Shown here one piece after another: positions 19,760 through 58,807 of a DNA stretch of 64,000 nt; the first letter of the stretch is position 1; every line of letters starts with the position of its first letter. The stretch comes from a virus. Under the pieces are notes generated by a model. That model worked only from the letters and a program-made list of their open reading frames with translations, was not told the origin of the DNA and did no database searches. Location of the stretch: positions 1 through 64,000 of the IMG/VR virus record IMGVR_UViG_3300004369_000004; one strand, given 5' to 3'. Both the position numbers and the translations under genes were made by a program.

Positions 19760-19808
19760 TTTAATAATTAATCGATTTTACTCCAGGCATTTTTTTGCCT
19801 CATTTATA

Positions 19809-19838
19809 CAAATATAGTTTTATTTATAAGTTTTTCAA
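19809..19838 (-). promoter_or_regulatory. Bacteroidota promoter TTG-N19-TATATTTG
   Basis: On the + strand, CAAATATA at 19809-19816 and CAA at 19836-19838. Confidence 0.8.
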
Positions 19839-19851
19839 TAGTTTAAGAAAT

Positions 19852-22800
19852 TTACTTCCTATCCATAGTTTCAAAATCACCCTCCAAAGCTTCTATGTTA
19901 GCATCTGCTCCGTCAATTATTTTTTGCAGATCAGAGATTCTTTCATACAAAGCATCTTTAGTATCTTTATCATCTACGTAGTTAAGTTCTTGCTGAATAG
20001 ATTTAATTTCTTTCTTAGCAGAAGCCGCTCCTTTTCTGGCAGCTCTCTTATCAGTTTCATAAGAACTAGTATACCACTTAGGGTTAGAGTATTCGTAACG
20101 TCTGTATAGATATTCTTGTCCCCCGTATATAGAGTTAACCGTTTTATCAAGAGCCCAAAGCTTAGCAAGTCTTGCAACTATCTCAGGTTTACCGTCCAAG
20201 AAAGGATCTCTTTGATATCTCTTAGGATTAAGAACTCTTCCTGTTTTACTTCTAGGAACATAGTCATCAAATGCATTAATGTCTCCTAGAGTAAAATCCC
20301 AAATAGACTGAAGCACATTTTTAACAGATTGGAATGGAAGAACCACATTCTTATGGGTGTAGTACTCTACAGCAGATTTACCATCTACGTTGTTTTCTAA
20401 TCTTGAATAAGCAATTGCGGCTGTTCCAAACAAAGGATGCAAAGAGCTCAACTCATCTTCTAGATAAAGAACGTTGTACAACATATAGTAAACTCCTAAG
20501 TTGTCCATATCATCATCATCGTCTGAGTAAACTGCAGAAGCAAGCATCTTAGCTACAGCCATTGCAGCAATAATTGCTAAAGTATCATAACCTGCGGATA
20601 TAATATTCTCTTTTTCATTTCTAGACAACAAGTCTCTGGTTGCTACAAAGTTCATTTTGTTATTAAACAACATTCTAGAAGCATTGAAAACAGTTCTATA
20701 CATACCTTCAAACTGCATACCCGCAGAATAAGACATACGTCTTGAACCAAATCTAGAAATATACTGGTAACCTAACCAGCCTCTCATATACATCAACAAT
20801 CGGCCAAAAGTATATCTACTGTATTCTCCTTTATCCATTGAGCCATATGCACCATGAATCATAGAGTTTACTAAGTTAAGTTGGTTACGGTAATGTTGTT
20901 CTGCTTTTGCAAAACCATCTTGATCTTTGATATCCTCTCTTGGAACCAAAGTATTACCAACTACCTGGTATGCATCCATAATAGGAACAAACTTACCATC
21001 ATTAAGCTCAATCAAGAATTGATCAGAAAGAGCACCTGCAACCGCAGAACGCATTTCGAATTCACCAAACTCTCTCATAAACGCAAGATGCTTAAGAGGA
21101 TTATACTTAGCAGACTTATCGAGAGAAGTTAAATAAAGTTTCTTTCCAGACTCACTCAGCGTATCAGTAGTCATAACACTGAAGTATTTCATCTTAACCA
21201 TGTATGGAGTATTCTGACCTTCTTCAACCTGAGCGTTAAATAGATTCATATACTCTTTGGCATTTTTACCCATGTGTTTAGAAACAGCTTTCTTGCTAAT
21301 TCCAAATCTGTTAAGTTGGATATAAATGTTTGCACTACCTGCCTGGAAGTTTTTAATAGCAGAAGGTAAGTTCAGAGAAAGTACCATGTTTGCTCCAAGA
21401 GAAAGAGATCTAGAAATTGCTTCTTCAGCAAATCTTAAAGCTTTAATGTTACTCATGGCTACTTTGTTCTGACCATTCATACGTCTTTCAAGCATATCAT
21501 TTACGACTTTAGCAGTAGTACCACGAACATGCTTTTCAACCAGATCTCTTACTCCCAAGATATAAGGAAGCTCTTCATACATACCTCTAAAGCGAATAGA
21601 CTCTGCGCCAAACTGAGTAATAGACTCAATAAAGTTTACAGTCATCTTATCTGCTTCCACAGGACGTACATACTTCATGTAAAGACGGTTCTTAGATCTG
21701 TTAAGCTGAGAATCTTTCTTTTGACTACTCTCAAACATAGCAGATTCTCCAAGCTCCTCATCATCACGTCCCATAATAGAGTCAGTTATGTTACCCCAAA
21801 CAGAACTTATTTGGGATCTAATTGTACCGAAGCTTTGATTAGCTCCTTCCAATCCGTCTTTACGAACTGAAGGAAGCTCTAGCCCTTTCATTAGATTTTT
21901 GGGAAGACCTTTCTGATGTCTTTGATAGATGTCAGTTACTTTTCTTAGAATGTCTCTCTGCTCAGCATCCAGTTTAGCATACTCCTTGCTACGATAAATA
22001 CTATCAGACTTAAGAGCTACTCTCTTTGAGTTTCTATTCTCTTTTACTTCGGGGTTAATGAAAGCAGGATTAACTTGAATATTGTACCAACGGAAAGAAG
22101 GCTCTGTCTCTAGAATATAATTAGGATTAGTAGGAAGAGTTACCTGCCATTGAAGGGTAGGTTTCCATACTTTCTTTTCTGTTCTAAAATCATAAGTCAA
22201 TCTGTGGTTATCTTTAAACCAGTCAGTCTTTTTTAACGCAGCTTCTAGACGAGCTCTAATTTGTTCAGTACTATAGTCAGAAACATTACCTTCTAAAGCT
22301 GCAATTACTTTTGGTCTAAGCTTTGCAAGGTTAATTGCTTTTTGCTTTTCATAGTCTTCTGTCTCTACAGTCTCTTGCATACTAGACAATTGACTATAAA
22401 GCGCTCTAAGGGCTTGTTTATCTTGTTTAGAAATTTCTCTGTTCTCTGAAATCTCTTCACGGATATCATCCAACTCATCTTGAAGCTGTTTGATTCTTAC
22501 AGGAATACTTATCTTAACAGTCTTACCCTGGTCATTAACATACTCTACTTTGTCTTGGATAATCAAAGAACCTTCGTACTCGCTGTTCTTATTCTTATAA
22601 GGCTTAAGCAAAGAGAACAACTCTTCGTAAACTTGTTGCACAGTTCTACCAGTTGTAGCAGCTGGGTATTTATTTTGAATCTCGGAAATAGCGTCAAGAA
22701 TATCTCTACGTTCTTCATAAAACTCAGGAGCAACCTTTCTAACTACATTAGCTTTCTTAAACTTCTCTAAGTCAGATATAGCCTTTTGATATTTCTTTTG

Positions 22801-25677
22801 AGCAATCTGTAGATTCTCTGCGTTATTACTTGTTTGAGCTTGAGTTAAAAGATCAGTTGCCTCTGCTACTGCTGCTTTCCTAGACTCAAACAATCCCTCA
22901 AATAATGCACGGTTACTTTCAGAGATAGTATACTGATACATGTTTGCAGCAGCTCTCTCAGACTTCCAAAGTCTGATGTTCTCTGCAATACGTCTGTTAT
23001 AGTCGTCCTTCAGTACACCATACTCATCGTAGTCAGACTCAAGCTGATCTAGTTGAGATTTAAGATCATCTAGTTTATCAAGATCTTCTTCAGATTGTTC
23101 TCCCTGTACAGGAGTCAATTGAATCTGACGCATCTTATCTATAATAGCGCTTCTAGCATCTTTTGCTTCAGGCAACAAAAGACCCTGGATACGATGATAC
23201 TCATCAGTATACATATCACGAAGATGTAAATCTTCAAAGGCCATTAAGTTTTCTATTCTCCTCTCAAGATCAGCATCCTCTTGCTCGGTTCTATTCTTCT
23301 TAGACTCAAGTTTGTTAATCTCGTATTTCTTTCTAGTCCAATCATTACGATAGCTAATCTCATCAAACTCATTTAACAAAGCCAGAGTCTCTCTTTCGAC
23401 TAATTGACCTCTTTGAATTTCTACAACTGTAACCTTTTGAATAAATGGACCAAAGACCTTTTGGAAGTCTAGACCTGTATAAGCAGTTATACCTTTCTTT
23501 TTATTATATGCTTGTAGCTGATCGGCAATCTTCTTCATCTCACCCTCAAGAGCTAATGCTTTTTGGGTTGAGCGTGACCAAATATTATTTATCAAAGTTC
23601 CTAAAGAACCACTAACAAGATTACCAGAAATAGCAGCTGATTCAAAAATAGAACTAAAGTAATTGGAAAGTTTTTGACGAGCGCCCTCATCTTCAATCTT
23701 TAAAGATCCTAACAAAGCTTTTTCTAGATTTTCAGGAGTAGCCAGGAAATTTAATCTATCTCTCTCCATTTTAAGCTTAAGCTGAGCATTCTGTTTAACA
23801 ACATTAGAATCTGCACTGGCTACAAGTTTTTCAAGTCTAGCAACTTCTTTCTCTATTTCTTTACGAAGAACTTCGGTTTGAGGAGCTAGTTCAGCTGCTA
23901 GTCTTTTTGCAATAGGTTTTGCAGCATTAGTATCATGATTACTTATTAAGCTTTTAGCAATAGCTTCGATGTTATTTAAAGACTTACCAATCAACGTATC
24001 AAAAGGAACGTTACCTTCTGGAAACATGAAAGACTTAAAGTCTTTTACATAGTCTACAAAGAACTCACCCATCTTAGCAGAGTGATACATCTTAGAATAA
24101 AAATCTCTTTCGGAGATAGCTTTGTTCTTCTTGATCTCTTCCATGTTTCTTGCAGCAGAACGCAAGAATGCAATAGTCTCAGACAAGTGACTTACTAATC
24201 CACTAAAAGAGGTTTTAAGATCTGCTGTCGAGATATCGTCAATTACAATACTATTTAGATGCTCCTGAGCAGCTGTAATATTATAAACGTTAACCCCTGT
24301 GCGATCTGCCTCTCTATAAACTTGAGACCAATTAACTGCATCACTATTTAAGAATTCGTCTAAGCGATCAAAAAAGATTTTAGAATCTGTGTAAGGCATC
24401 TCTTCCAAAAACTTTTCATACTCAGCAGTGCTGGGTGCATAAGAAAGTTTTCGTTGAGTACTGTATGTCAAAGAAGTATTGATGGACTCATTACTAATTA
24501 CATCTATCACCATAGCACCTACAAGAGAGTCTAAGTACTCTTGAGAAACAGATCTACCAGAACGTCCCAAAACCTTGTTAAACATCTTTTTAAAGAAGTT
24601 TAGCATTGACTGTATAAAAGAGCCGTGAACTTCAGGTGCTTCTTGCTCAATAGCTGCTCTGAATGTTGGATTAGAAAGGAACTCTGATAAAAATTCATGG
24701 TAATCAGTCAATCCATAAAAGTCTTCAATACCAATCTTGCCTTTGTGTTTTTCTCTATAGTATTCGTAGATTCTTTTAATCTCACTAGCAAAAACTTTAT
24801 CTGCGGCTGTAATAGGATTTTCTAAAACAGAGAAGAAAGCAGCATGCACCATCTCATGTATAAGAACGTTCTTAAACTTATTAGCAGAAAGAGTTGAGAT
24901 AGCAGCAGCATTAAACACAATGCTGTTAGTTACAGGATCAAACTGTCCTATTCCGTATACATTGTTTTCAGAAAACAATACGTCTTTTGTGATCTCAAAG
25001 TTAATGTCTGGAATAAACTGAGAAATAGAAAGCAGTGTATTTAAGATGTCTCTTTGTTGCGAAGTAGTACTAGGATCTTTAAGTATGTTATTAATTGTGT
25101 TGTAAAGATTAGGGTTAACCAAATCTATAAACTTAGTAAGATCTCTTAAAGCAGTAGGCAATCCATTCTCAACCTGTACATCATATAGCTCATTAAAGAT
25201 AGAGTTACCTAAAGAAGCCAAATGATCTTGGCTATAAGGAAGAGGATAAATTCTGTAAGTTCTTTCGTTAGGATTAACTTCAGGATCTACAGTTTCTATT
25301 TCTAAAGAGATGTCTTCTGGTTTATTCTTAATAATACTTCTTACTTGAGCCAGATTTAAAGTTGTGCTAATAGCAAGATTCTGCTCATCGTAAAAGCTTT
25401 GTACTTTATCTATATATCCTACAATAGAAGGATTAGCTTCTACAAAGGGAAGTTTCTCAAGTACCTCAGTTACATTAGGTTCAACGTAAGGACTTTCGCT
25501 CTTCTTATTGTTCCAGCTTTTTACTCCAGAAGATTTACTATAGATAAATCCTGCACTTAAAACATCTGACAAATCAGCTTCTGAGATACCGTTCTGATTG
25601 AGCATATATCCCACTAAAGAAGCATGTCTTCTTCCAGTTACAGGGTTATTAAAATTAATTATACAATTACGAGGCAT
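19852..25677 (-). CDS. giant virion (ejected) protein associated with the vRNAP, with an N-terminal zincin-like domain (1941 aa)
   Basis: HEMVH at 24844-24858 plus a downstream EFLSE; helical composition; third of three giant genes as in crAss-like RNAP loci. Confidence 0.75.
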   Translation of the reverse strand: MPRNCIINFNNPVTGRRHASLVGYMLNQNGISEADLSDVLSAGFIYSKSSGVKSWNNKKSESPYVEPNVTEVLEKLPFVEANPSIVGYIDKVQSFYDEQNLAISTTLNLAQVRSIIKNKPEDISLEIETVDPEVNPNERTYRIYPLPYSQDHLASLGNSIFNELYDVQVENGLPTALRDLTKFIDLVNPNLYNTINNILKDPSTTSQQRDILNTLLSISQFIPDINFEITKDVLFSENNVYGIGQFDPVTNSIVFNAAAISTLSANKFKNVLIHEMVHAAFFSVLENPITAADKVFASEIKRIYEYYREKHKGKIGIEDFYGLTDYHEFLSEFLSNPTFRAAIEQEAPEVHGSFIQSMLNFFKKMFNKVLGRSGRSVSQEYLDSLVGAMVIDVISNESINTSLTYSTQRKLSYAPSTAEYEKFLEEMPYTDSKIFFDRLDEFLNSDAVNWSQVYREADRTGVNVYNITAAQEHLNSIVIDDISTADLKTSFSGLVSHLSETIAFLRSAARNMEEIKKNKAISERDFYSKMYHSAKMGEFFVDYVKDFKSFMFPEGNVPFDTLIGKSLNNIEAIAKSLISNHDTNAAKPIAKRLAAELAPQTEVLRKEIEKEVARLEKLVASADSNVVKQNAQLKLKMERDRLNFLATPENLEKALLGSLKIEDEGARQKLSNYFSSIFESAAISGNLVSGSLGTLINNIWSRSTQKALALEGEMKKIADQLQAYNKKKGITAYTGLDFQKVFGPFIQKVTVVEIQRGQLVERETLALLNEFDEISYRNDWTRKKYEINKLESKKNRTEQEDADLERRIENLMAFEDLHLRDMYTDEYHRIQGLLLPEAKDARSAIIDKMRQIQLTPVQGEQSEEDLDKLDDLKSQLDQLESDYDEYGVLKDDYNRRIAENIRLWKSERAAANMYQYTISESNRALFEGLFESRKAAVAEATDLLTQAQTSNNAENLQIAQKKYQKAISDLEKFKKANVVRKVAPEFYEERRDILDAISEIQNKYPAATTGRTVQQVYEELFSLLKPYKNKNSEYEGSLIIQDKVEYVNDQGKTVKISIPVRIKQLQDELDDIREEISENREISKQDKQALRALYSQLSSMQETVETEDYEKQKAINLAKLRPKVIAALEGNVSDYSTEQIRARLEAALKKTDWFKDNHRLTYDFRTEKKVWKPTLQWQVTLPTNPNYILETEPSFRWYNIQVNPAFINPEVKENRNSKRVALKSDSIYRSKEYAKLDAEQRDILRKVTDIYQRHQKGLPKNLMKGLELPSVRKDGLEGANQSFGTIRSQISSVWGNITDSIMGRDDEELGESAMFESSQKKDSQLNRSKNRLYMKYVRPVEADKMTVNFIESITQFGAESIRFRGMYEELPYILGVRDLVEKHVRGTTAKVVNDMLERRMNGQNKVAMSNIKALRFAEEAISRSLSLGANMVLSLNLPSAIKNFQAGSANIYIQLNRFGISKKAVSKHMGKNAKEYMNLFNAQVEEGQNTPYMVKMKYFSVMTTDTLSESGKKLYLTSLDKSAKYNPLKHLAFMREFGEFEMRSAVAGALSDQFLIELNDGKFVPIMDAYQVVGNTLVPREDIKDQDGFAKAEQHYRNQLNLVNSMIHGAYGSMDKGEYSRYTFGRLLMYMRGWLGYQYISRFGSRRMSYSAGMQFEGMYRTVFNASRMLFNNKMNFVATRDLLSRNEKENIISAGYDTLAIIAAMAVAKMLASAVYSDDDDDMDNLGVYYMLYNVLYLEDELSSLHPLFGTAAIAYSRLENNVDGKSAVEYYTHKNVVLPFQSVKNVLQSIWDFTLGDINAFDDYVPRSKTGRVLNPKRYQRDPFLDGKPEIVARLAKLWALDKTVNSIYGGQEYLYRRYEYSNPKWYTSSYETDKRAARKGAASAKKEIKSIQQELNYVDDKDTKDALYERISDLQKIIDGADANIEALEGDFETMDRK

Positions 25678-25698
25678 TTTTATTCTATTGCTTATTTA

Positions 25699-25727
25699 CA
25701 AATATAACTATTAACACTTAGTTTCAA
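25699..25727 (-). promoter_or_regulatory. Bacteroidota promoter TTG-N18-TATATTTG
   Basis: CAAATATA at 25699-25706 and CAA at 25725-25727. Confidence 0.65.
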
Positions 25728-28700: not shown

Positions 28701-31700
28701 TATTTTTAAGAAGATCTTGGTGAGCTTTTAAGCTATCCAAAAGTTCTTTTCTAGCTGCTACATAATTGTATACAGTCTTTGGATTCTTTTTAAATCTACT
28801 GTCTGCTTGTTTTAGATTACCTTCCTGATCTAGTTCAGGCTCATACATAAACAATTTGTCAATGTCAAAGTCACCACCAGACTTGGTAACCAAAGAAGGA
28901 GGAACAATAATTATAGGACCAGCAGACTCTGAAAGAAACTCACGAACACGGAAGTGCTCCATAGAGTTAAATCCTTGTACAGGAATACGTACTCCAACAA
29001 TAGTTAATTTGTCAGAATGTTCTTCAACCCACTGATCATCCATCAATGCCTTGTTAAGGTTTGTTAGATTATCTATAATCTCGCCATCCCACTCAAGCTC
29101 AAGCAAGCCACCATATTTCTTATGGTTGAATGCGATTTTAATATCTGCAGGTTGATGTTTTCCATTTACAATACGTCCATAGTCTCTAAGACCAGACACA
29201 CCGTACTTCTCAACTTGCGCTTTTGTAGGTTTAACAAATCTTGTATTACTCTTGTTAAAGCCTGAAGAAGCCGTTTGAATAAATGCTTCGCCAAACATTT
29301 TAGGCTTAAGAACTCTCTTGCTTATAGAAGTTGAGATTACATTCTCAATCAACTGTCTGTGAGGAGATACGTCTAAAGCAAACAAGAATTTATTATCCTG
29401 CACTTTGAGATAGTCATATACTGCTTGCGGAATATCTTTCTTGTCAAACTCTGACTTAATCCAATCAGCAAACTTTGCTGTGTCAAAACTAACAAGGCCT
29501 CCTTCTTGATCTACAGTAGCTCCAATAGAACTAAATATCTTAGCTTTTTCTGTTTGTACTACTACGTCAATGTTTGTCTTAAAGGCATTAATAGCTTTAG
29601 TAATCTTTTGCTCAAGACCAGGTACAGCTTTAATCTCATCTCGTATCTCACCACCCTCATAGAAGTTAGAGAATGCTAGTTTAACCATCTGTGTAGATAG
29701 AGTAGCTTCTCCCTTAAACTTAGGAGCAATGTATTGTTGTCTTCTCAAACCTTCAATAGGAAGAGTAATTAAGTTTTCTTGTTCAATGTCGTTGGTCTTT
29801 AATACTTCATTGCTTTTACCAGAAGGCTCGATTACTTTTTCAGTTTTATAAAAAGGAATAGATTCTCTAGGAGAAGACATCTTACTTCCACTATCAAAAG
29901 TAGCAAAGTCTACTCCACCTTCTAGCATGTTAACCATCAGGTCTTCTAGATCTGTCTCAAACAACGCAGAAGGAAGCAAAGGAGCAACAGAGTATTTACC
30001 CAACATCACATAATTAGTATCTTCTACAGGGGACCCCCAGTAGCCTAACTTAAGTGAAGGCAGTGCTCCTAAATTAACCTTCGCTTGAAGTGCTTTGATT
30101 TGACCGTACACTTTAGGATCAGCTGTTTCACGGTACTCCAAAACTTTCTCCATAATTTTTACCTCGTTTTGGTAAAGTTCTTCTAGTTGAGGAGTCCACT
30201 CTCCTACGCTATCCAAATAAAATCTCAAGAAGTCTAGGTTACCATAAGCCTGTGCGTCAGATTCTTTGTCTTGTCTGATTACAGAATCAAGGGCAAGTCC
30301 TAAGTCATCCTCTGCTTGAGCTTTATAGAAAACATTGTCTTTCTTTTTCTTATCAAGGCTCTTAAGGTGCTCTGCATAACTATCAATTACTGCTTCTCTA
30401 TAAAGCCTGCTTTGAGTCTCGTTATCAAAAGTCTTAATATCCTTGAACTGTACGTAGCTAAAGTTCTTAGTATAGTCTCTTACGTTATTTGGAGATACTA
30501 AAGCCTCAAGCTTTCTGCCCAACTTAGCGTTAGAGTTTCTACTAGTCAAGTCTTGGTCATCTATAATAGGCTGACGACCTGGAGAAATAGATGCACCTAA
30601 ACGTTTAAATACTTCACGCCAGTTATTAGCTGCAATATCTTTTGGCTTGATTCCAAAGTTAGAAGGATCTCCAACTAACAAGTGTAAGTATTCTACCTGG
30701 TGGGTGTAATAGTTTGTAATATAAGAAGCCAGGGTAGGATAAATATCATAATCCCCAAAGACATCTTTAAAACGTTCTTGAAGAGATGGTAGTTTTTTAG
30801 TACCTTCAATTCTTCCACCATTAATAGCTTGCGCCAGTTCATTGATGGAAGTTTCCATCTCTGTGCTAAAGAAATTAGTAAGATAGTCTTCAAAGCTTAC
30901 ATAGCCTATTGAGTTTGCTAAAGCTTTTATAGTTTCTTCTTTTGACTTCTCACTGGTTCTTAAGCTATCTATGATTTCTTTCTTAACATCCTTAGGAAGA
31001 ATGTCATTAAAAATAATAAACTGAGCACCTCTTGTCTCCTTTGCATTTAGAGTGTCCTTCTGGTTAGAGTCATCGTAGATTCTAGCCATCTCAAACTCTA
31101 AGTAATCTTTAAACTGATCAATTACTTCAGGAGCTAGAGTAATCTTTTTTGTTTCTGGATTATAACCAAACTTATCAAATCCGTAGTAAATTCTGCTACC
31201 TCTAGACTCACCTACTCTGATAGCAAACGTAGAAGACTTTGCTCCGTTACGCATGTTCTCAACAATACCTTCTTTAAGGAAAGCAGCTAAGTCTTGTACA
31301 TACTTATCGTCTACGTCTAGATTAATAGTCTTTTTATCAGAGAAACCAGTAAAGTTATCTAGACGCATTGTAACAGGCATTCTAGATTTACCTATCAGTC
31401 TTTCGCCACCTTCATTGAACATCTTGCGCATCAAGGCGGATTTTCCAATAAAGTTATTTCTATTAGGATTTAAGTGCCCAGTAAGCTCATTAATATTCTG
31501 AGCAGCATTAATCTTTTCAATCTGATAAGCTAGGTGTTGACGCTCCCTTATAGACCACTCCATGTTTCCTTCCTCGTTCAAGAATGAACCTGACTTGGTT
31601 ACATAGTAGTAGTTTTCAATTGCTTTATACAAAAGAACTCTTTCGTTATTGAGGAATTCTTTCTTGTTAAAGTTTGCAGTAAGAAAATCGTATACAGGCT

Positions 31701-34260
31701 TAAACTCCTCTTCCTTTGCTAGAGGCTTGTTCATCGCAACAATGCGATCATAGATATCAGTTCTCAAATCACTCAAGAACGTGCCTGCTGGAGTTTCAAT
31801 ATTTCTAGGTACAAGATTCTTTAGACCTCTATACTTATCGTTAAGAGGAAGATTGTAAACTAGTTCATATAACTGCATCTTTTTATATGCAGACAGAGCC
31901 ATCTTTCTAATAGCTGCAATTGTCCCAGGAGAATAAGGGGAAACACTTTTTCTTATTTGACCTTTTTTGTCAAACAATACTTTTGCTTTTCCCTGTGTTA
32001 AATTGATACCAAAAGAATCCTGTAAGAAATCAAAGATAACTTTATCAGGACTATTAGGAAGAATCTCATAAGAATCTAAAGCAGAAGAAACAGAAAATGT
32101 AGCGAAGTCCAAACCTTCGTTAGTAGTGTTTGCAAACTTTCTATATCCATCATTGTCTACTTCCCCCCTATAAGCTCTAGAAGCGCTAAGCTGAAACTCT
32201 GTATCTAAGAATTCTGCCAATGCATCTTGAGTCAATGTGTTCACAGAGAAAGTACTTAAAGTCAAAGCAGACTTTTTTCTTTGCTTTATTTTCTTTTCCT
32301 GATCTCCTTTTTCTGCAGGAGAAACTTCTTCAGAACTAACAATCTCTTCTGATGCTTTAGCTCTCACAGTAAATGGAGGAATCTGAGGCATAGTCAAAGA
32401 TTGCATAATCTGAGCCTTAAGACTCAACTCTACAGGAGTAAGAGTAACAGAGTCAGGACTTGGAAGAAGCTCGAGCAAATCGGCCATTTGAGGATTATAC
32501 TCTACTAGGCTTTGAATCTTATTGATTACATCCTTATAAGATGTCAATCCAGACAATGCATCTTGCAAAAGGTTTTTATTGTAAAGGAAGTTTCCACTTG
32601 CAGGCAACCCTAGAAGGTTACCTCTGACCAATTGTACTTCTCCGTCTACAATTCTTTTATCAGGAAGACTTCTAATAAGCTCTACTACATATGGATCGTA
32701 GAACTGCAAAGGATTAGATGCGCCAGGATCATCATAGATACCAACAGACTTGGTTTGTTCTGACTCATCCTTATCATCGTTTAGTTTGTCTTGGCTATCT
32801 TCCTTAGCTAGAGTAGTTTTAAAAATCTCTCCCTGTATGTTTTCTTGGTGATGATCTACTACTTTCTTCCAGTTCTCTTCGCTGTGAACTAACAAGCGTA
32901 AGTATGATCTTGTATTCTCTAATCTCTCTTTAGCAGATAAAGACTTTGTAGATTCAATCTGACTAGTAAGATCATCAATCAATACCTCAACTTCGTTACG
33001 TGCAAAGTTGTACAAAGAGGAAACATACTGACTTCTAAACTTCTTGTCCATCAAGCTTGTGATGCTAACCTTGTCAGCTCTCATCTTGTTGTACAAAGTG
33101 TAGTCAATAAAGCCAAAGACCTCAAATGTTTCTTGAGGAGTAAGATCAAAAGTATTCTTGCCTGACTCATTCTCATAGTCTAGGCTAAATCCTATAGATC
33201 TATTAAGTAAGTCAAAGCTAACGTTAGTATTGTCTAGAGAGAATCTACTAAAGTTACTAGTGTAAAGAGTCTCAAATACTTCTCCTACTTTAGAATTTTG
33301 AAGATCTTTAAAAGTGATTTTCTTTTGTTCAACAGGTACTCCCGTAAAGAAAGACTTCAAGAAATCTTGAATTTTTTGGAAGATAGTTCTTACAGGCTTC
33401 TCCAATTTCTCAGGAGACTTGGTGCGAGTAATTGCATATGCTCTGTACTCCTCTGCCAAGATCTCTTCTGTCTGTCTATCAGTGAGTGCGTAATAAGGAA
33501 TACTGATTTCACCTATCTTTACAGAACCTTCTCTGTCTCTTACAGAAGCATAGAGCTCTGTGCGCTCTTCTTTAGATAGAAACTTTTGAGTGAATTCGTG
33601 AAAAGATTCGTGATACAAATCTGTTTTTTCCGAACCTCTATATACTGTTAAAGCATTCTTAGACCATGTAGCATATGCACCACTGTTAACAATGTTAGAC
33701 ATGTTAACAAAGTTGATATGTTTAGAGATCTCACTTTTTTGAAAATTAACATAGGCATCTAGTTGATCCAAAGCCGTAGTAGGCTCCATGTTATTCAGCA
33801 ATGAATTAGGATCTTGCTCTAGTTGTTCTCTTGTTACATCAAGAACTCCGTAAAAGTTTTCTCTACGTATAGCAGAAGCTCTTGCTGATTGTCGTATGTA
33901 TGATTGAGATATATCTTCAACTGTACCTTTTTTCCTATCAATGAATTCTTTTACTGCTTTGACTTTCTGAGCAGAAGACTTATTGTCAAACTCAGGATTA
34001 GCTTTTTTAAAGTTATTTCCAAAAGTAATAGACATTGCTAGAGTTGCAGCTCTAGAATCTCCTTTAAATGAGTCCTCTAATTTTTCATAAAACTTATTAC
34101 CAATTACTTTATCTAACTTGGCTCTTTTGTCAAGTCTTTGATGTAAAGGCAATCCATTGTTTTTATCCCAAAGGAAGTATGCAAAGTCCTCACCCACAAT
34201 CTGGCTAAGGTCATTAAATTGTTTTCTTATATTAGGATCTGATAAATTAGGACAAATCAT
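25711..34260 (-). CDS. virion DNA-dependent RNA polymerase (crAss-like, phi14:2 gp66-type), 2849 aa
   Basis: Catalytic GGDFDIDKLF (28858-28872), preceded by VGVRIPVQG; FKRLG and DAQAY motifs; N-terminal HESFH zincin motif. Confidence 0.9.
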   Translation of the reverse strand: MICPNLSDPNIRKQFNDLSQIVGEDFAYFLWDKNNGLPLHQRLDKRAKLDKVIGNKFYEKLEDSFKGDSRAATLAMSITFGNNFKKANPEFDNKSSAQKVKAVKEFIDRKKGTVEDISQSYIRQSARASAIRRENFYGVLDVTREQLEQDPNSLLNNMEPTTALDQLDAYVNFQKSEISKHINFVNMSNIVNSGAYATWSKNALTVYRGSEKTDLYHESFHEFTQKFLSKEERTELYASVRDREGSVKIGEISIPYYALTDRQTEEILAEEYRAYAITRTKSPEKLEKPVRTIFQKIQDFLKSFFTGVPVEQKKITFKDLQNSKVGEVFETLYTSNFSRFSLDNTNVSFDLLNRSIGFSLDYENESGKNTFDLTPQETFEVFGFIDYTLYNKMRADKVSITSLMDKKFRSQYVSSLYNFARNEVEVLIDDLTSQIESTKSLSAKERLENTRSYLRLLVHSEENWKKVVDHHQENIQGEIFKTTLAKEDSQDKLNDDKDESEQTKSVGIYDDPGASNPLQFYDPYVVELIRSLPDKRIVDGEVQLVRGNLLGLPASGNFLYNKNLLQDALSGLTSYKDVINKIQSLVEYNPQMADLLELLPSPDSVTLTPVELSLKAQIMQSLTMPQIPPFTVRAKASEEIVSSEEVSPAEKGDQEKKIKQRKKSALTLSTFSVNTLTQDALAEFLDTEFQLSASRAYRGEVDNDGYRKFANTTNEGLDFATFSVSSALDSYEILPNSPDKVIFDFLQDSFGINLTQGKAKVLFDKKGQIRKSVSPYSPGTIAAIRKMALSAYKKMQLYELVYNLPLNDKYRGLKNLVPRNIETPAGTFLSDLRTDIYDRIVAMNKPLAKEEEFKPVYDFLTANFNKKEFLNNERVLLYKAIENYYYVTKSGSFLNEEGNMEWSIRERQHLAYQIEKINAAQNINELTGHLNPNRNNFIGKSALMRKMFNEGGERLIGKSRMPVTMRLDNFTGFSDKKTINLDVDDKYVQDLAAFLKEGIVENMRNGAKSSTFAIRVGESRGSRIYYGFDKFGYNPETKKITLAPEVIDQFKDYLEFEMARIYDDSNQKDTLNAKETRGAQFIIFNDILPKDVKKEIIDSLRTSEKSKEETIKALANSIGYVSFEDYLTNFFSTEMETSINELAQAINGGRIEGTKKLPSLQERFKDVFGDYDIYPTLASYITNYYTHQVEYLHLLVGDPSNFGIKPKDIAANNWREVFKRLGASISPGRQPIIDDQDLTSRNSNAKLGRKLEALVSPNNVRDYTKNFSYVQFKDIKTFDNETQSRLYREAVIDSYAEHLKSLDKKKKDNVFYKAQAEDDLGLALDSVIRQDKESDAQAYGNLDFLRFYLDSVGEWTPQLEELYQNEVKIMEKVLEYRETADPKVYGQIKALQAKVNLGALPSLKLGYWGSPVEDTNYVMLGKYSVAPLLPSALFETDLEDLMVNMLEGGVDFATFDSGSKMSSPRESIPFYKTEKVIEPSGKSNEVLKTNDIEQENLITLPIEGLRRQQYIAPKFKGEATLSTQMVKLAFSNFYEGGEIRDEIKAVPGLEQKITKAINAFKTNIDVVVQTEKAKIFSSIGATVDQEGGLVSFDTAKFADWIKSEFDKKDIPQAVYDYLKVQDNKFLFALDVSPHRQLIENVISTSISKRVLKPKMFGEAFIQTASSGFNKSNTRFVKPTKAQVEKYGVSGLRDYGRIVNGKHQPADIKIAFNHKKYGGLLELEWDGEIIDNLTNLNKALMDDQWVEEHSDKLTIVGVRIPVQGFNSMEHFRVREFLSESAGPIIIVPPSLVTKSGGDFDIDKLFMYEPELDQEGNLKQADSRFKKNPKTVYNYVAARKELLDSLKAHQDLLKNKLEEFKSKYDSQQTAVQVLEKHIANNGMILNFDKSKLSDQEKSEIFDSAFDQLTFLEKLTEASKDDAQVRALYESIKAMRSKYAEVAQYSPGKIKSGFSNELIQSLSSVLSEPAIMKQMLKPNDSPILKKIANHYNEVYKKGKGRISSSRMFTPSVSLQIFKENAMAKKGLGTAAKMNALHKLYQQTGLRYTNEFFMKNYLMRANKVNNSINLGGYYDANNEHLISDLIDEFINGFVDVEKEDWVNYFNADNKRAPIILQMVLNGTPIEDAILLVNQPIVQHYLKNSRLNSTSRLLGEKSSGVMNYLREGLTALGKKKFIGFTNNIPDLNKTINNILKDDYFTKHIRNMSEESYAPSVDNTREAYDNLLEAAKQGESTSELAAQIAFMTQYHLVSEQNKDLLNLNSAIDFNTARYITLNDFHRVVNTIKEESDNFNQDGINKILKDSVVSPFNLTKEAIAIGENAFSIMGMAWYQDFLNDFTKEYGKYWAPDERSTEVNNLNNAIMHGIIQQYSFSEEDDVDYYLEYGPNSGYLTQNGVGNLRSKFTELFRKKTQENSELKDFAQNNLFLKNFKTKNVENTNKFYVAMETNERDPIMVDSMQKSFQDGLNYGLSTPGSGDVNLDEQVRQFFHDVASATIMGQGFTIKYRSLQPYLPLDALDAIVPAMDEMDTIAEKVKVVPGEVSEDRMKLLAYMQQILKLHNKVNGTKTSALNNSRYFPDYRSGVKGIRISPYKTQLSAMLSPNTTLAKSKGNLKTDWKVEFNGKKYEDAWAAYTKTKDVLEREGKISGKRQELLTNNMTDILEARFLQNSRMFGALYDKGGLEFLENSYVEGLSAEWNSTPLSRGWYIDSLKAAYERVLPEMEEAWVNREPTSEKMIDSETSETMEDPSADYVPMDFTEEDSLESLAQESGLKIKDKSSTVKEQEPAELSEEDLTYGIELPNGETMSLSYDQITAENLKQYFPQLTAQQAAKAAEAFRQELRDNNPGYDFETKC

Positions 34261-34276
34261 TACTTTTCAATTTATA

Positions 34277-34284
34277 CAAATATA
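34277..34284 (-). promoter_or_regulatory. Bacteroidota -7 element TATATTTG upstream of the vRNAP gene
   Basis: CAAATATA on the + strand, 16 nt upstream of the start codon; -33 TTG not evident. Confidence 0.6.
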
Positions 34285-34314
34285 CTTTAAAACTAAAAGA
34301 AATAAAGAGTTATA

Positions 34315-37300
34315 TTACAAACCAGGACCTGATCTACGGCCAGATTTTATAGCAGCTTTTCTACCAGAACCTGTCTTACAAACTTCTTTATTTTCTTTAC
34401 CTTGTTGTTTTTGATTTTCATCAAGCGCTTCGTCAGTTACAGAATTCTCCATTTCCTCAAAGCTTAGGGGTGTTTTCTCTTTACCAGCAGGAACAACTTC
34501 TTCAGATTTCCAATCCTCCCTAGCTACTCTTACAAGGTTGTAATCAGCTTCTCTGCTATCAGATTTATCGACTATAACAGATCCAATTACAACAGAATTA
34601 TCTGGAAGAGCAGCAGCTTGAGTAGAAGTTAATCTTCTAGCCAATACTCTTTTAGTCTTTCCATTTTTATCTGTGACAGAAAGAAGAACTAATTCAAAAT
34701 CTGGATTATCAATAACTCTCTCGTAAGCTTGCCCAGTAATCTCGCCTTGCTCATTCGGAATCAATACCTGAACATCAGTAACAGAATTAGGATTAGCTTC
34801 AATCTGAGCAATAAGCTCATCGTAGTCTAACTCTTTCATTGGAGGAAGCTTTCCTAAATAATCTGCAAACTCTGCATGAGGCACAACAGCAAACTTGTCT
34901 TGTATCTTAGGTTTAAGAGTCGTAGACTTCTTAGTTTCTGTAGGACCTTCTAAGGCAGCTAATGATTCTTTTTCCTCCCTAGACAACCCTACAGAATTTA
35001 ATTCTTGAGTTGTAAGTTTAGCGCCAAAAGATTTATTTATATTTTCTAAAACTTGTCTAGAAGGAGTGGGGAAAACTAAATCAGAAAACTTAGGAGAAAG
35101 AGAAGTGCCTAATTGAGATCCTCTTCCTTTTCCTGAAAAATAAGCAGAAGTAACATACTTGATTTTTTGTTCATCTGTTACAATCTCTTTATTATTCTCA
35201 TCAGTTACCTTTCCTAATCTTTGATACTTTTCATTGTAAGGCTTAATTGCCTCATACAAATCAACCAAGTATTGACGAGTAGCAGGAGAAAGACTTGCTA
35301 AAACTTCGTCAGAGATATTATTAAATCTTTTATCGTTACCTTCATAGAAGGCTTTCTCAAAGATTCTAAATAAAGTTTTCTGTTGTGCTTGATCTACAGG
35401 TGCTTCCGAAGACTCTTGCTCTTCTACCTTTTGTTTGATCTTAGATGGAGGAGTAGCAGCAGCTTTAATATTCTTAACCTTGTTAATCTTATCAATAGCT
35501 TCTAGATCCAAATACAAAGATTTGTTTACCATAGAGGTAACTTTGTTCTCTTTGTCTACTGGTAGCTCATGAGTTCTTTTTATGTAATCAAGATAAGACT
35601 CTTGGCCTATCTCAATTTCACCCGCCTCATTCAAAGAAACAAACGGTATCTTGTTTCCAAACTTTTTTCCACCCAAAAGATAATCTGCGTCTACTTTGTA
35701 ATAATGATCTTGTAGAGTCTTAATAAACTCTTCTTTGCTTAGAGTTTTAAACTGTCTCTTACCATCTTTATCAGTAGTAACTCTTTTAGGCTTGATAAGC
35801 TGATCAAGAATTTCTTGACCCTCAACACTTCTATAACGCTCTCCTTCGAAGAACATCAATCGATTGTCTTTATCAATCTGGTTAATTACAGTTCTTAGGA
35901 ATGCGTCAAGTTGGGCGGGGCTAATAAGATCTGTATTATTAGAATACACAAGCTCAGCAATTGCTACAGCTTCTGCTTCAGAGATCTTACGGTTATTTAG
36001 AATAACAGGATTACCGTTGTTGTTGTAGTACAAACGACCCAGTTGGAACTTAAAGTATTTATCAAAGATAGACTCAGAAGAATTCTGCGCAATTTGAAAA
36101 TCATTCAAGCTTGCAGTTTCAGATATTCCAGGAACATCTTGTACAGCCATGTAATTAGTACGTGGCAACAGCACACCTTCAGATACGTCTGCATCTAATA
36201 CTACATCAGTATCATCGTTCTCTTTAAGGTAATCGATAAGAGTATTTCTAGCATCATAAGCAGGTCCATAAGTTGACAATACTTCATCTTCTGTGACTCC
36301 GAGCTCAGTGCCTTCTCTTTCTACACGTCTTGAGTTTCTCCAAGGAACTTTTTTCCAATTAGAATTCTTTCTACCTTCTGCAGATTGTTCTGCAGTAAAG
36401 TTTAATTCGAGCGGATATCCACCCTCATCATAAACAATCTTACCTTTTTCATCCGCAACAGTGATAAGTACGTCAGGTTGATTAACCAATCCTCTGCCTT
36501 TGTTGCGCAAGAAGAAATCAATCTGACCCTCATCAAAGAAGTTCTCACCTAACATGTCTGTAATAGGCTGAAGGAAAGTTACTTTCTCCTCTTCAGACAA
36601 CTGTTTAAACTTAAGACCAAGCAAATTAGCATCTGAAGTTTCAAAGAAATTAGATATAGTCTTTAAACGCTCCTCGATTTGTTGATCAGATTCTTTAGGG
36701 AATCTATTAGATAAAACCTCTCTTAGGAATTGTCTTCTATTAAGGACCTTAGCTTTAAAAGGTTCCTCAGATAGCTTATCTAAGAACTTAACTCTTCTTA
36801 CAACAGCAGGATCAGTAGACAATTCATTTTGAGCATTTACCTCAATACCAGCAGTTCGTGCAGGAGAAGTTAATTCTAATAGTCTAGCACGTCTAGCATT
36901 CATAATAGCATCAAGCTTCTGCAAACCTGCAGTGATATTATCAGGAACTTTTTCTTCACGAGCTTCTTCGCTTACTGGCGGTCTGTCCTCAGATTCGTCT
37001 TCTGCGGCTTCTTCAGTAGAAGGTACTTCCTCTGTAGTAGCTGTAGTATTAAAGTCTGTTGTAGGATTCTTAAGTACAACTTTAGTGGCAGTTTTTTCCC
37101 ATAGTTCTAACTCAGCCAACGCTTCTTGTAGTGAAGAGATTCTAGGACTGTTAGGATTAGTAGATTCAATTGTTGCAATTTCTGCAACAATCCCAGCCTT
37201 TGCCTCATTAAGTTCATCGGTAAAAGCCGATTTATCTTTGTTAGCTAGATAGTTGTTAAGGATTTGTTTAAGCTTTCTAGCTCTAGCACTATTAGGATTA

Positions 37301-40300
37301 AAGTGCACATTAACACGATTCCTTAGTATTTCTGCAATTTGTTCAGGAGTCTTATTAGCTGTGATTCTATCGTAGTATTCTTTTTGAATATCTTTCTTCT
37401 CAGAATTACCAGACTCATCTGTTGTATTATCTGCTTGAGATGCTTGAATAGAAAGATCTACCAAATCATCCCTTTGCTCAGTTGGATCTGTGTTAGGGTT
37501 ACCCTGAGCAGCATCTGAGCTATCATAAGTTCCCGTCTCGGCTAGAGACTGACTACGTTGAATACCTCTTTTTGTAATGTATTCGTTTCTAAGAGACTCG
37601 AATTCCTCAGGGGTAACGTTAACTTCAACAGTGTCACCAAGTTTTAAGTACTCATTTAACTGATCAAGACTAAAATAAACTCCTCTATCCATTGCAACCA
37701 GAGCCTCAAATGCTCTAGTGAAATCTCCATTTTGATTTCTTGAATCTCTAAGGTTAACAAACATGTCAGCCATGCTCAAGTTAAAGTTCTCTTGAAGAAT
37801 GTTATAGAGATCTTGATTTATATGATTTTTATTAAACTCTACCTTACGTATAAAATCAATTAGCCCTTTAACATCCACCTTCTCTAAGAACATTTGGATA
37901 TCTGTATTAGCTAACTCCTCTTCAAACTTACTATATTCTTGCTCAGCAGACTTACCAGTTAACTCTTCAAATCTTTCCCCATATGCATTAAAGAGTTCTT
38001 TTTTTCTACGTAAAGCGCTTTCGTACTTTTTACTCTTAATCTTTTCTATCTCGTCTATATCATTCTTAAGATTTGAATAAGATTGAGCAATAGCTTCTGG
38101 ATTAGTCTCTTCTTTAACTGCATTGATCTTCTCGTTGTACAGATTATTAATGATTTCATCCTTCTGCTCACGAGACATATTAGCATACTTATCAGCTCTC
38201 TGCTCAGTTCTTACAATATCAGTCTCTATATCTTTAATGATATTATTAAGATCTTCTTCTGTGAATGAAAGATCTTCATCTACTATAAGATTTTGAGCAC
38301 GTAAAGATTCAATAAGTTCAGGCGTAAGATCTGTTTTATTAACGTTGATCTTACGTGTCTTATCTAAGATCTGTCCTAACTTAGTTAGTCTAGTGTGATT
38401 TGCAATATCTTCAGGAGTGGCCGTCTCATCTTCAATTTTAGTAGTCAGTACAGCCAAATCAGCCTTAACAGCATCGTATTGTTCTTGTGCTCTTTGAACT
38501 GCTTTAGAGGCTCCTTTATGTGCCGCAAGTTCTGCTCTTTGTTCCTCAGTCATATTTGCAAAATCTAGCTGAAGTAGATCATTGCGTTTTACTGCATTTG
38601 TAAACAAAGAAAATCTAGTATCCTCATCATTCAAGAAGTCAGGAAGATTAGCCATCTTCTCAAGCACAGGAATATTTTCATATACAGTCTTAAGTTCTTC
38701 TATACGATAAATACCATCTCTGAATTCTTTTTCAGTAATAGCTCCCTCATCATATTCTTTCTTAAGGTGTGCTCTAAACAACTCTGGATTATTTGCAGCT
38801 TCGTAGTTTGATTGATTCTGTAGGTAATCTCTACGTGTAATAGAGTAGTGGCGCATTCCTGCATTTAAACCACTATAAAGAAGACCTGCTTTAAAAGACT
38901 CTCCCAAAGTTTCCATGACAGCGTCTGAGTCAAACTTTGTTTTCTCTCTACCAATAGCATCATACTCTTCATCGTAGATATGATTAGAAATCAGATATTC
39001 TCCAAGAAGCGCCATTTCTTCCTCAAAGCTTTCAAGTAAGTTAAACTTACCAACGTTCTTTAGAAAGTCTGCCCCACCTCTAACGTAGTTAGTCATAAGC
39101 TGAGATCTAGTTAGTTCTAAACCAGCAGCTGTTCTAGCAGAGCCTGCAGTAGTTCTTGTATATCCTTTAACTTTAAGACCTCCTACATCAGGAAAACCTA
39201 TACCTTCAGTTAGACCTTCGTTCAAAGCATGTGCCCAAGCTCTGCTTTTATAATTACCTCCCCACTTCTTCTCTTCTTCTACCATCTTAGGATAGGTATT
39301 AGCAGTTACGAGTGTAAGAGTAGAAAGACGATCTGCTAATTGTAGTTCTCCAATAACAGGAGCTTTAATCTTATTAAGCTTATCGTAAGCGCTAAGACCT
39401 CCCATAGAAGCAAATCCTCTTCTAAGTAAAGCACTCTCTACAATAATAGGAAGCATGTCTCCTGTAATAGTCATACCTGACTCAAATAAACCAGACCAGT
39501 TATAATCATTACCGTTATCTGAGTTAATAAGAAAGTCAGAAGACATTACTGCATTACCAAACTTATCATAAGATACAACCTCAGGTGTATAAAAAGCCCT
39601 ACGAGACAATTGTCTCTCAGCTTCTTTTGCACCCTCAGGAAGATAGGCTGTACCTGTTTTAGATACACCATATGCCCAAGCTTCTAGTCTATCTGCAAAT
39701 GCTCTAAATCCTCCAGAAGTAGCTCCTTTTTCAATACCGTAAAGTTTTTCAAGATTACTTTCTCTATTTCCTAGAGTGTTTAAAGCCTTTAGATACTCAT
39801 CTCTTTGATTAGATATAGCCTTATACTCAGTATCTGCTGGATCTTTTAAGTTATTTAAAGTACTGTTAAGGTCTTGTATAGCTAAAGATAAAGCATACTT
39901 AGACTTGCTAAGATGTTCTTTCTCAAGATCATACTTAAAGTAATTATCGTCTTTATTAGTAGGACTTTGAGTTACTTTACCTCTTAAAGCTTTTCTGTAA
40001 GAATCTAAATAGGCTTGGCTGCCTTCTACATTCTCCATCTTAGACCAATCAAACTCTCTACCTTTATAAGTATCAATTCGATTAGCATCGGGGTCAGCTT
40101 CTCTATAGAATTCTGATCCTACTGTATTAAACTTATCTTCTAGTATGTTTGACAGATAAGGATTAAATGCATTTTTATCAGTAGTAATGTCAGTTATATT
40201 ATTAATATCCTGAACCAATTTAGCTACGTCCAAAGATTTTGCTGCTTCAATACCTCTCTTCTGATTTAAGTAACTAGAAGCGTATCCATATAACTCGTTA

Positions 40301-40785
40301 GGAGTAGATACTTTTGATACAGTATCAAAGTCTAGTTTGTCATTTTTAAGAAGATTCTTAGCTCTATTTTCTTGTTTGTATAAATCAGTGCCTATATAAA
40401 AACCTAAACCTTGTCCAAAGTTTTCAAGATATTCTACTTGATCAAACAAGTATTTATTGTCTCTGCCTGATTCCTTAAGATCTTGAAGCTCTTTAGCTAA
40501 TAAGTTAAACTCGTCATTTGTTTTAACTGACTCTATTCGATTGTAAAGATCAGAAGCATAAGACTCAGGTTTACCTGCTTGAAGACTTAAAGCCGTGATA
40601 GAGTTTACATTAAAGTTTCTATTTTTATTTGCTAGTTCTCTAGATTCTTGAGCTGCTTGATAGTCATTTAAACCATAAGATAAAGTTCTATTAAGCTCTC
40701 TCAGAGACTCCTTCTGTTCAGGAGTTTCTTGATTAGAAATACCTAATGCTTGATTACTAAAGTAACTAAATAAATCGTTAGGCAT
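34315..40785 (-). CDS. giant virion (ejected) protein of the vRNAP locus (2156 aa)
   Basis: Size, coiled-coil and acidic composition, Gly/Ala-rich membrane-like N-terminal segments, and position immediately upstream of the vRNAP gene. Confidence 0.7.
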   Translation of the reverse strand: MPNDLFSYFSNQALGISNQETPEQKESLRELNRTLSYGLNDYQAAQESRELANKNRNFNVNSITALSLQAGKPESYASDLYNRIESVKTNDEFNLLAKELQDLKESGRDNKYLFDQVEYLENFGQGLGFYIGTDLYKQENRAKNLLKNDKLDFDTVSKVSTPNELYGYASSYLNQKRGIEAAKSLDVAKLVQDINNITDITTDKNAFNPYLSNILEDKFNTVGSEFYREADPDANRIDTYKGREFDWSKMENVEGSQAYLDSYRKALRGKVTQSPTNKDDNYFKYDLEKEHLSKSKYALSLAIQDLNSTLNNLKDPADTEYKAISNQRDEYLKALNTLGNRESNLEKLYGIEKGATSGGFRAFADRLEAWAYGVSKTGTAYLPEGAKEAERQLSRRAFYTPEVVSYDKFGNAVMSSDFLINSDNGNDYNWSGLFESGMTITGDMLPIIVESALLRRGFASMGGLSAYDKLNKIKAPVIGELQLADRLSTLTLVTANTYPKMVEEEKKWGGNYKSRAWAHALNEGLTEGIGFPDVGGLKVKGYTRTTAGSARTAAGLELTRSQLMTNYVRGGADFLKNVGKFNLLESFEEEMALLGEYLISNHIYDEEYDAIGREKTKFDSDAVMETLGESFKAGLLYSGLNAGMRHYSITRRDYLQNQSNYEAANNPELFRAHLKKEYDEGAITEKEFRDGIYRIEELKTVYENIPVLEKMANLPDFLNDEDTRFSLFTNAVKRNDLLQLDFANMTEEQRAELAAHKGASKAVQRAQEQYDAVKADLAVLTTKIEDETATPEDIANHTRLTKLGQILDKTRKINVNKTDLTPELIESLRAQNLIVDEDLSFTEEDLNNIIKDIETDIVRTEQRADKYANMSREQKDEIINNLYNEKINAVKEETNPEAIAQSYSNLKNDIDEIEKIKSKKYESALRRKKELFNAYGERFEELTGKSAEQEYSKFEEELANTDIQMFLEKVDVKGLIDFIRKVEFNKNHINQDLYNILQENFNLSMADMFVNLRDSRNQNGDFTRAFEALVAMDRGVYFSLDQLNEYLKLGDTVEVNVTPEEFESLRNEYITKRGIQRSQSLAETGTYDSSDAAQGNPNTDPTEQRDDLVDLSIQASQADNTTDESGNSEKKDIQKEYYDRITANKTPEQIAEILRNRVNVHFNPNSARARKLKQILNNYLANKDKSAFTDELNEAKAGIVAEIATIESTNPNSPRISSLQEALAELELWEKTATKVVLKNPTTDFNTTATTEEVPSTEEAAEDESEDRPPVSEEAREEKVPDNITAGLQKLDAIMNARRARLLELTSPARTAGIEVNAQNELSTDPAVVRRVKFLDKLSEEPFKAKVLNRRQFLREVLSNRFPKESDQQIEERLKTISNFFETSDANLLGLKFKQLSEEEKVTFLQPITDMLGENFFDEGQIDFFLRNKGRGLVNQPDVLITVADEKGKIVYDEGGYPLELNFTAEQSAEGRKNSNWKKVPWRNSRRVEREGTELGVTEDEVLSTYGPAYDARNTLIDYLKENDDTDVVLDADVSEGVLLPRTNYMAVQDVPGISETASLNDFQIAQNSSESIFDKYFKFQLGRLYYNNNGNPVILNNRKISEAEAVAIAELVYSNNTDLISPAQLDAFLRTVINQIDKDNRLMFFEGERYRSVEGQEILDQLIKPKRVTTDKDGKRQFKTLSKEEFIKTLQDHYYKVDADYLLGGKKFGNKIPFVSLNEAGEIEIGQESYLDYIKRTHELPVDKENKVTSMVNKSLYLDLEAIDKINKVKNIKAAATPPSKIKQKVEEQESSEAPVDQAQQKTLFRIFEKAFYEGNDKRFNNISDEVLASLSPATRQYLVDLYEAIKPYNEKYQRLGKVTDENNKEIVTDEQKIKYVTSAYFSGKGRGSQLGTSLSPKFSDLVFPTPSRQVLENINKSFGAKLTTQELNSVGLSREEKESLAALEGPTETKKSTTLKPKIQDKFAVVPHAEFADYLGKLPPMKELDYDELIAQIEANPNSVTDVQVLIPNEQGEITGQAYERVIDNPDFELVLLSVTDKNGKTKRVLARRLTSTQAAALPDNSVVIGSVIVDKSDSREADYNLVRVAREDWKSEEVVPAGKEKTPLSFEEMENSVTDEALDENQKQQGKENKEVCKTGSGRKAAIKSGRRSGPGL

Positions 40786-46062: not shown

Positions 46063-46131
46063 TAATTTTAATTTTAAAAGTTATTAATTATAACCTTGAA
46101 TATTAATAACTGGATGAATTACAGTAGTATA

Positions 46132-46161
46132 CAAATATACAAGATTAATTAAAAAATTCAA
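46132..46161 (-). promoter_or_regulatory. Bacteroidota promoter TTG-N19-TATATTTG
   Basis: CAAATATA at 46132-46139 and CAA at 46159-46161. Confidence 0.8.
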
Positions 46162-58763: not shown

Positions 58764-58777
58764 AATACCGCTTATTA

Positions 58778-58807
58778 CAAATATACTTAAATTTTAATTT
58801 TAGTCAA
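58778..58807 (-). promoter_or_regulatory. Bacteroidota promoter TTG-N19-TATATTTG
   Basis: CAAATATA at 58778-58785 and CAA at 58805-58807. Confidence 0.8.

Follow-up and report, generated by a model that had tools for sequence, protein, structure and literature searches.

Conserved cysteines at facing protein termini suggest a head-to-tail disulfide tether in the virion RNA polymerase module of crAss-like phages

A cysteine-poor block of five large genes

The DNA analyzed here (the window) covers positions 1-64,000 of the 100.9-kb IMG/VR virus record IMGVR_UViG_3300004369_000004. Its minus strand carries five large open reading frames (ORFs) in a row, encoding a protein of 1102 amino acids (aa), a 649-aa protein, a 2156-aa protein (referred to as A), a 2849-aa protein with a zincin motif and the signature of a virion RNA polymerase (referred to as RNAP), and a 1941-aa protein (referred to as C) (Table 1). 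When cysteines were tallied by script over the ORF translations of the window, A, RNAP, and C were found to contain only four in all three combined, placed at the C-terminal end of A, at both ends of RNAP, and at the N-terminal end of C, such that each faces another across a gene junction. A preliminary description of this stretch, made by eye, had listed the same residues and codons and had noted that the 649- and 1102-aa proteins seemed free of Cys; the script reproduced all of them and turned up no internal Cys that the eye had overlooked.

The depletion itself is extreme. From the mean Cys content of the window's other 26 ORFs (1.39%), about 121 Cys would be expected in the 8697 residues of the five proteins, compared to the four observed (Poisson P ~4e-46). 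For four Cys placed at random, the probability of all falling no farther than 21 residues from an end is ~9e-8, and a further chance factor of ~1/8 applies if facing ends specifically are required, both figures having been calculated post hoc.

The start codons that define RNAP Cys3 and C Cys5 are sound because the N-terminal motifs are kept in homologs: RNAP homologs down to 36-44% identity start with MICPN or MxxCPN, and C homologs with MPRNC or MARHC. The N-terminus of A is uncertain, as the database gene call (P0080, 1972 aa) begins 184 codons after the first ATG; neither version of the protein has an N-terminal Cys. Counterparts of the 649-aa protein that are likewise Cys-free are phi14:2 g068, crAss001 Gp46, and DAC17_55.

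Table 1. Coordinates of the five genes, the junction cysteines, and the enzymatic motifs in the window.
Feature	Coordinates	Strand	Remark
Protein A, 2156 aa, giant cargo-like, without HExxH	34315..40785	-	Sole Cys is residue 2136
Codon of A Cys2136, 20 residues before the C-terminal end	34378..34380	-	Proposed donor, link 1
Zincin + virion RNAP, 2849 aa	25711..34260	-	Cys3 and Cys2849 only
Codon of RNAP Cys3 (MICPN motif)	34252..34254	-	Proposed acceptor, link 1
HExxH zincin motif of RNAP, H217-H221	33598..33612	-	H217 and E218 invariant
Catalytic DFDID motif of RNAP, D1797-D1801	28858..28872	-	D1797, D1799, and D1801 invariant
Codon of RNAP Cys2849 (last residue)	25714..25716	-	Proposed donor, link 2
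Protein C, 1941 aa, SprT-like zincin motif	19852..25677	-	Sole Cys5; ortholog of phi14:2 gp65 / crAss001 Gp49
Codon of C Cys5	25663..25665	-	Proposed acceptor, link 2
HExxH motif of protein C, H274-H278	24844..24858	-	H274, E275, and H278 invariant
649-aa protein upstream of A	40789..42738	-	Cys-free; by position like crAss001 Gp46 (cargo 2)
1102-aa cargo-like protein	42754..46062	-	Cys-free

Identity of the three proteins

Judged by its alignments, the 2849-aa protein is related, though very distantly, to the virion RNAP of crAss-like phages. It matches phi14:2 gp66 at 21% identity (tblastn E 1e-12; blastp E 1e-16) and cr4_1 at 25% identity (tblastn E 3e-21), and as a homolog of gp66 it has the two-barrel core and the DFDxD motif, which takes the form DFDID that is named in the phi14:2 gp66 paper. 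Its N-terminal part bears a conserved zincin motif, YHE[AS][WF]H. When residues 1-350 were modeled with AlphaFold2, residues 1-8 formed a coil (predicted local distance difference test score, pLDDT, ~64) followed by a confident helical domain. The predicted template modeling score (pTM) of the model was 0.41, too low to judge how close Cys3 lies to the HExxH, and a Foldseek comparison of this model with the PDB gave no match.

Protein C matches phi14:2 g065 (E 3e-18) and crAss001-like Gp49 (E 8e-17), and on this similarity is an ortholog of phi14:2 gp65 and crAss001 Gp49; it has an HExxH of its own at residue 274, and its Pfam SprT-like match falls under the cutoff. Protein A gave no direct BLAST match to g067 or Gp47. 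Its residues 404-755 align colinearly with the N-terminal region of naturally occurring A+RNAP fusion proteins, and on gene position and this mapping A may be the gp67/Gp47 ortholog. Sequence searches of the five proteins against PHROGs, Pfam, and PDB returned next to nothing.

Mass spectrometry has identified all three orthologs in virions of phi14:2 and crAss001 (Drobysheva et al.; Bayfield et al.), and these proteins must traverse the tail partly unfolded. Fused polyprotein forms of the Crassvirales RNAP module are already known. By analogy with these two phages, A, the zincin-RNAP protein, and C would constitute the packaged and injected RNAP-locus module of a crAss-like phage.

Conservation of the terminal cysteines

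The preliminary description had predicted that the terminal-only Cys would be conserved in orthologs, and the pattern was found across the whole order. The RNAP set comprises 64 homologs of 2503-4859 aa at 21-100% identity. A Cys falls at one of positions 3-8 in 55 of them and no more than 11 residues from the C-terminal end in 62, and 47 contain no further Cys. M1, C3, P4, and N5 are invariant across 21 members of the clade. An alignment of 44 RNAP sequences spanning 17-62% identity has only 28 invariant columns, among them C2849, H217, E218, and the three catalytic Asp, and a C-terminal Cys is present in all 102 distinct RNAPs used for the RNAP-core tree. The two partners behave in the same way: a Cys occurs at position 3-5 in all 15 protein C homologs (the sole Cys in 14 of them) and 1-25 residues from the C-terminal end in all eight protein A homologs, with the context of Cys2136 (EVCKTGSG) resembling the NHCKGGK at the C-terminal end of distant relatives.

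An alignment-driven scan of IMG/VR yielded 80 loci, with 14 that had no ORF matching the regular expression for the catalytic motif left out. Nineteen complete, distinct, unfused triads (140,118 residues) contain 76 junction Cys, exactly four per triad. Only four more Cys lie at other positions, and the outer ends (the N-terminal end of A and the C-terminal end of C) have none.

Characterized phages follow the same rule. In phi14:2 the sole Cys of g067 is its last residue (gp67 Cys1797), g066 has Cys3 and Cys2179 (of 2180 residues), and g065 has a sole Cys3. In crAss001, the only Cys of Gp47 is Cys2339 (of 2341) and that of Gp49 is Cys5; Gp50 contains three, namely Cys5, Cys2404 (of 2412), and an internal one. 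DAC17 shows this same pattern, and p-crAssphage, crAss002, and Fpv3 also obey it. The rule still holds in crAss001 and DAC17, where the A-like gene is encoded on the opposite strand; the pattern is therefore a protein-level trait, and an intergenic nucleotide signal was ruled out as its cause.

Two further observations concern the gene calls of these loci. The RNAP-locus genes of four IMG/VR loci (L001-L004) and of cr4_1 (L006, NC_055893) have in-frame TAG as their only in-frame stop codon, 30-59 per giant ORF, which indicates TAG recoding. The annotated start of crAss002 gp33 (L092, MN917146; 13088-25825) is probably 32 codons too far upstream, as a start at Met33 gives MSC..., as in p-crAssphage gp44 (MSC...), and fits the terminal-Cys rule.

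Paired loss of cysteines where genes are fused

If facing Cys work in pairs, a pair should be missing exactly where its two genes are fused, as the preliminary description had anticipated, and this was seen for both A+RNAP and RNAP+C fusions. At the A/RNAP junction, both Cys are present in 43 loci and neither in seven, with no discordant locus; all 57 loci scored at the RNAP/C junction have both. The seven loci with neither Cys encode long proteins with N-terminal parts homologous to stand-alone A, and are thus true A+RNAP fusions. Further A+RNAP fusions occur in cr4_1 and Fpv3, which keep the RNAP/C pair only. The reciprocal case is provided by p-crAssphage gp44 and crAss002 gp33, which are RNAP+C fusions by homology; the A/RNAP pair is kept in both, and both are free of Cys around the fusion point and at the outer end that the fusion creates. 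Each fusion thus deletes exactly one complete pair, and only head-to-tail pairing does so.

On the tree of 102 RNAP cores, A+RNAP fusions arose several times, and loss of the N-terminal Cys needs at least seven changes on supported branches. The split point itself also shifts between lineages: the zincin is at the N-terminal end of RNAP in the window and at the C-terminal end of Gp47 in crAss001 (hidden Markov model E 2e-12), and in both lineages the Cys pair is located at the split.

Two atypical loci were examined individually. L081, which might have been a split module without Cys, turned out to be a fused A+zincin+RNAP gene with a frameshift at ~10440-10700, since conserved sequence runs on in the next frame; the frameshift is either an assembly error or programmed. 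L065 (5952 aa, open-ended) was considered as an RNAP+C fusion, had no C-family BLAST match, and was excluded from the counts.

Comparison with known systems

The closest precedent is the pair gp27-gp26 of cyanopodophage A4 (Anabaena phage A-4L), in which a Cys1715-Cys5 disulfide was observed by cryo-electron microscopy (PNAS 2025, PMC12002296). The sole Cys of A4 gp27 is 2 aa from its C-terminal end and that of gp26 is Cys5; as in the window, adjacent genes encode packaged pre-ejectosome proteins with a sole Cys at the C-terminal end of the upstream and the N-terminal end of the downstream partner. Unlike the virus in the window, A4 is T7-like, belongs to another family, and has a single link between two proteins, neither of them an RNA polymerase, and its paper presents neither a comparative rule nor covariation with fusion. 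A phmmer search with A4 gp26-gp29 against six window proteins gave no match at E<=1, so that the relation is one of analogy, not of family membership.

Within Crassvirales, phi14:2 gp67-gp66-gp65 and crAss001 Gp47-Gp50-Gp49 share with the window the orthologous RNAP and C and an identical terminal-Cys pattern, whereas identity is only 21-25%, and the YHExxH zincin of the window lies at the N-terminal end of RNAP instead of on the A-like protein. The word "cysteine" occurs neither in Drobysheva et al. nor in Bayfield et al., and the disulfides treated in the phi14:2 and crAss001 papers are in tail and portal-vertex proteins only.

The N4-like phages (N4 gp50, DEV gp71-gp73) provide a different parallel, in which the giant virion RNAP and the ejection proteins are nearly Cys-free. 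Cys suppression in this ejection operon has been attributed to passage through the periplasm with its disulfide-forming enzymes, and gp71 homologs contain 0.00075% Cys (PMC11445570). There, no terminal Cys is conserved, whereas the window retains one invariant Cys per facing end, and its four conserved terminal Cys set it apart from the complete absence of Cys in the N4-like case.

Both Cys suppression in ejected proteins and the A4 disulfide are thus already published, while no description of a terminal-Cys rule for Crassvirales was found in the literature searched. The preliminary description had regarded the linked chain as undescribed, which holds to this extent for Crassvirales; the principle has its 2025 precedent in A4.

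A proposed head-to-tail tether and its alternatives

In light of these comparisons, the facing thiols most likely form two inter-protein disulfides that join A, RNAP, and C into a linear thread. The module would in effect be a polyprotein split over three genes, from which selection would have purged all Cys but for a single thiol at each break. A Cys2136 would be bonded to RNAP Cys3, and RNAP Cys2849 to C Cys5, linking the chains into one linear thread of ~6950 residues. With the Cys at the extreme ends, this thread would be unbranched and able to cross the narrow tail partly unfolded. The tether may couple packaging of the three proteins and preserve their exit order, and thiol reductases of the host cytoplasm would then open the link.

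The preliminary description had left open whether terminal disulfides or shared metal sites link the chain. Its central idea is supported in that conservation and fusion loss indicate that the facing Cys act as head-to-tail pairs; the choice between disulfide and metal, the time at which the bonds would form, their effects on 1:1:1 packaging and ordered ejection, and their reductive release we infer from the comparisons above. We favor a disulfide because there are no other conserved metal ligands near the Cys, because crAss001 virions have inter-subunit disulfides elsewhere, in the tail and portal vertex (PMC10172136), and because the A4 pair serves as a control.

Several points weigh against such a tether. 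The evidence for the link in crAss-like virions is comparative throughout, and the Fisher P of 1e-8 ignores shared ancestry. In the window, 20 residues follow the Cys of A, and these would protrude from the thread as a short side branch. Two database proteins (P0033 and P0057, with starts as called) have no N-terminal Cys, internal Cys are tolerated in some lineages (p-crAssphage gp44 has seven), and the TAG-recoded RNAPs of L001-L003 have seven internal Cys, no C-terminal Cys, and no downstream C gene. For gut phages, assembly takes place in a reducing cytoplasm and the habitat is anoxic, which bears on when and how the thiols would be oxidized. Finally, paired loss after fusion would also be expected if Cys were merely tolerated at protein ends; however, mere tolerance does not account for their retention.

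This last objection is the core of a reading in which the Cys have no function, having been purged from ejected proteins by exposure to the periplasm and its Dsb enzymes and spared at disordered termini. Cys suppression is indeed documented in ejected proteins of N4-like phages, but those proteins are essentially Cys-free with their termini included, while the Cys of the RNAP module do not vary across 17-62% identity, with exactly one per facing end and never one at an outer end. This combination of invariance, single occurrence, and restriction to facing ends requires positive selection, and we regard the absence of function as scarcely credible. Only slightly less remote is a cysteine switch in the style of matrix metalloproteinases, in which a terminal Cys would ligate the HExxH zinc and keep the protease latent in the virion. 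Both N-terminal-Cys proteins of the window do carry HExxH within 280 residues, but the fused forms retain HExxH without the junction Cys, the distance from the N-terminal Cys to HExxH varies from ~200 to ~1500 residues, phi14:2 gp66 and crAss001 Gp50 have the terminal Cys and no HExxH (the crAss001 zincin sits in Gp47), and the AlphaFold2 model shows no confident domain packing, so that we rejected this switch on position and covariation. A lipidation reading was rejected on the same two grounds. A split intein would bring fragments of ~100 aa and ~35 aa at the split, with Cys1 and with a C-terminal HN followed by a Cys; on positions only, this too was ruled out, as Cys at 0-8 residues from the ends (20 in A of the window) leave no room for intein blocks.

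The remaining alternatives concern the partner and the chemistry of the thiols. Each terminal Cys could work alone or bond with a third party (portal, capsid, or other cargo), or A and C could be bonded to each other with an intramolecular bond between the two ends of RNAP. The many structural disulfides in crAss001 virions fit such bonding, as do smaller cargo-like proteins with a lone terminal Cys and no obvious facing partner (described in the next section). Against it, fusions in both directions remove exactly the two facing Cys and leave the pair of the other junction intact, any other pairing would orphan two partners per fusion, and none of the 19 triads has a Cys at its outer ends; we therefore consider third-party bonding unlikely. 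Slightly more unlikely still is that the facing Cys are bridged by a shared metal ion (Zn, Fe, or Cu), which would give the same topology by other chemistry. The comparative data fit a metal link and a disulfide alike, and two of the three proteins contain the zincin HExxH, but each terminus has one conserved Cys without conserved His, Asp, or Cys neighbors, the flanks vary freely, and in the sole solved case with this signature, A4, the bond is a disulfide.

Other cysteines and elements near the module

Some smaller cargo-like proteins have a lone terminal Cys and a facing neighbor without Cys: p-crAssphage gp47 (L090, 5588-8161; Cys856 of 857), crAss002 gp30 (L092, 2393-4066; Cys550 of 557), and Fpv3 gp30 (L093, 2054-3850; Cys5). 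A 158-aa protein of the window (46324-46800) ends in Cys158 and also has Cys127. The terminal Cys of these proteins could be further links, either within homodimers or to other partners. Three cargo-1-like proteins upstream of the module have one close Cys pair each, C-x8-C to C-x12-C, and no other Cys, namely 964/977 in the window (46800-49862), 369/378 in phi14:2 g069 (L005), and 390/398 in gene 73 of a crAss001-like phage (L007). DAC17_54 (L008) has two such pairs (211/219 and 273/281). These close pairs may be internal disulfides or metal sites.

In p-crAssphage (L090), a thioredoxin and a truncated thioredoxin are encoded near the RNAP module (30978-31256 and 31976-32245), and may be relevant to the reduction of virion disulfides after entry.

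The sequence TATATTTGTA, which contains a TAnnTTTG-like core, occurs in five exact copies on the minus strand of the window (19807-19816, 25697-25706, 34275-34284, 46130-46139, and 58776-58785). The copies are intergenic, just upstream of minus-strand genes including those of RNAP and C, and the sequence is likely a late-promoter element. Counted with up to one mismatch, copies are not above chance (13 found vs. 12.5 expected).

Implications for Crassvirales

Crassvirales, which count the most abundant human gut viruses among their members, pack and inject several megadaltons of protein, their own RNA polymerase included, and the crAss001 atlas could not resolve these RNAP-module proteins. A rule of one Cys per facing end and none at fusions, if true, would explain in concrete terms how the proteins are packaged together, exit in order, and become active upon entry, and would account for why the module exists split in some lineages and fused in others. 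More tentatively, and with somewhat less than even confidence, we suggest a redox-gated "pseudo-polyprotein" throughout the order, in which disulfides would replace peptide bonds at the splits, so that split points may drift (to either side of the zincin domain, or to the boundary of RNAP and C) without loss of function, and in which a thread of ~0.8 MDa would be packaged as a unit, leave in fixed order, and be separated into active enzymes by thioredoxin-type reductases of the host.

The tether can be tested in cultured phages, as the rule names exact residues: Gp47 Cys2339/Gp50 Cys5 and Gp50 Cys2404/Gp49 Cys5 in crAss001, and gp67 Cys1797/gp66 Cys3 and gp66 Cys2179/gp65 Cys3 in phi14:2. The terminal-Cys rule is also a practical aid in annotating start codons and gene boundaries in these viruses.

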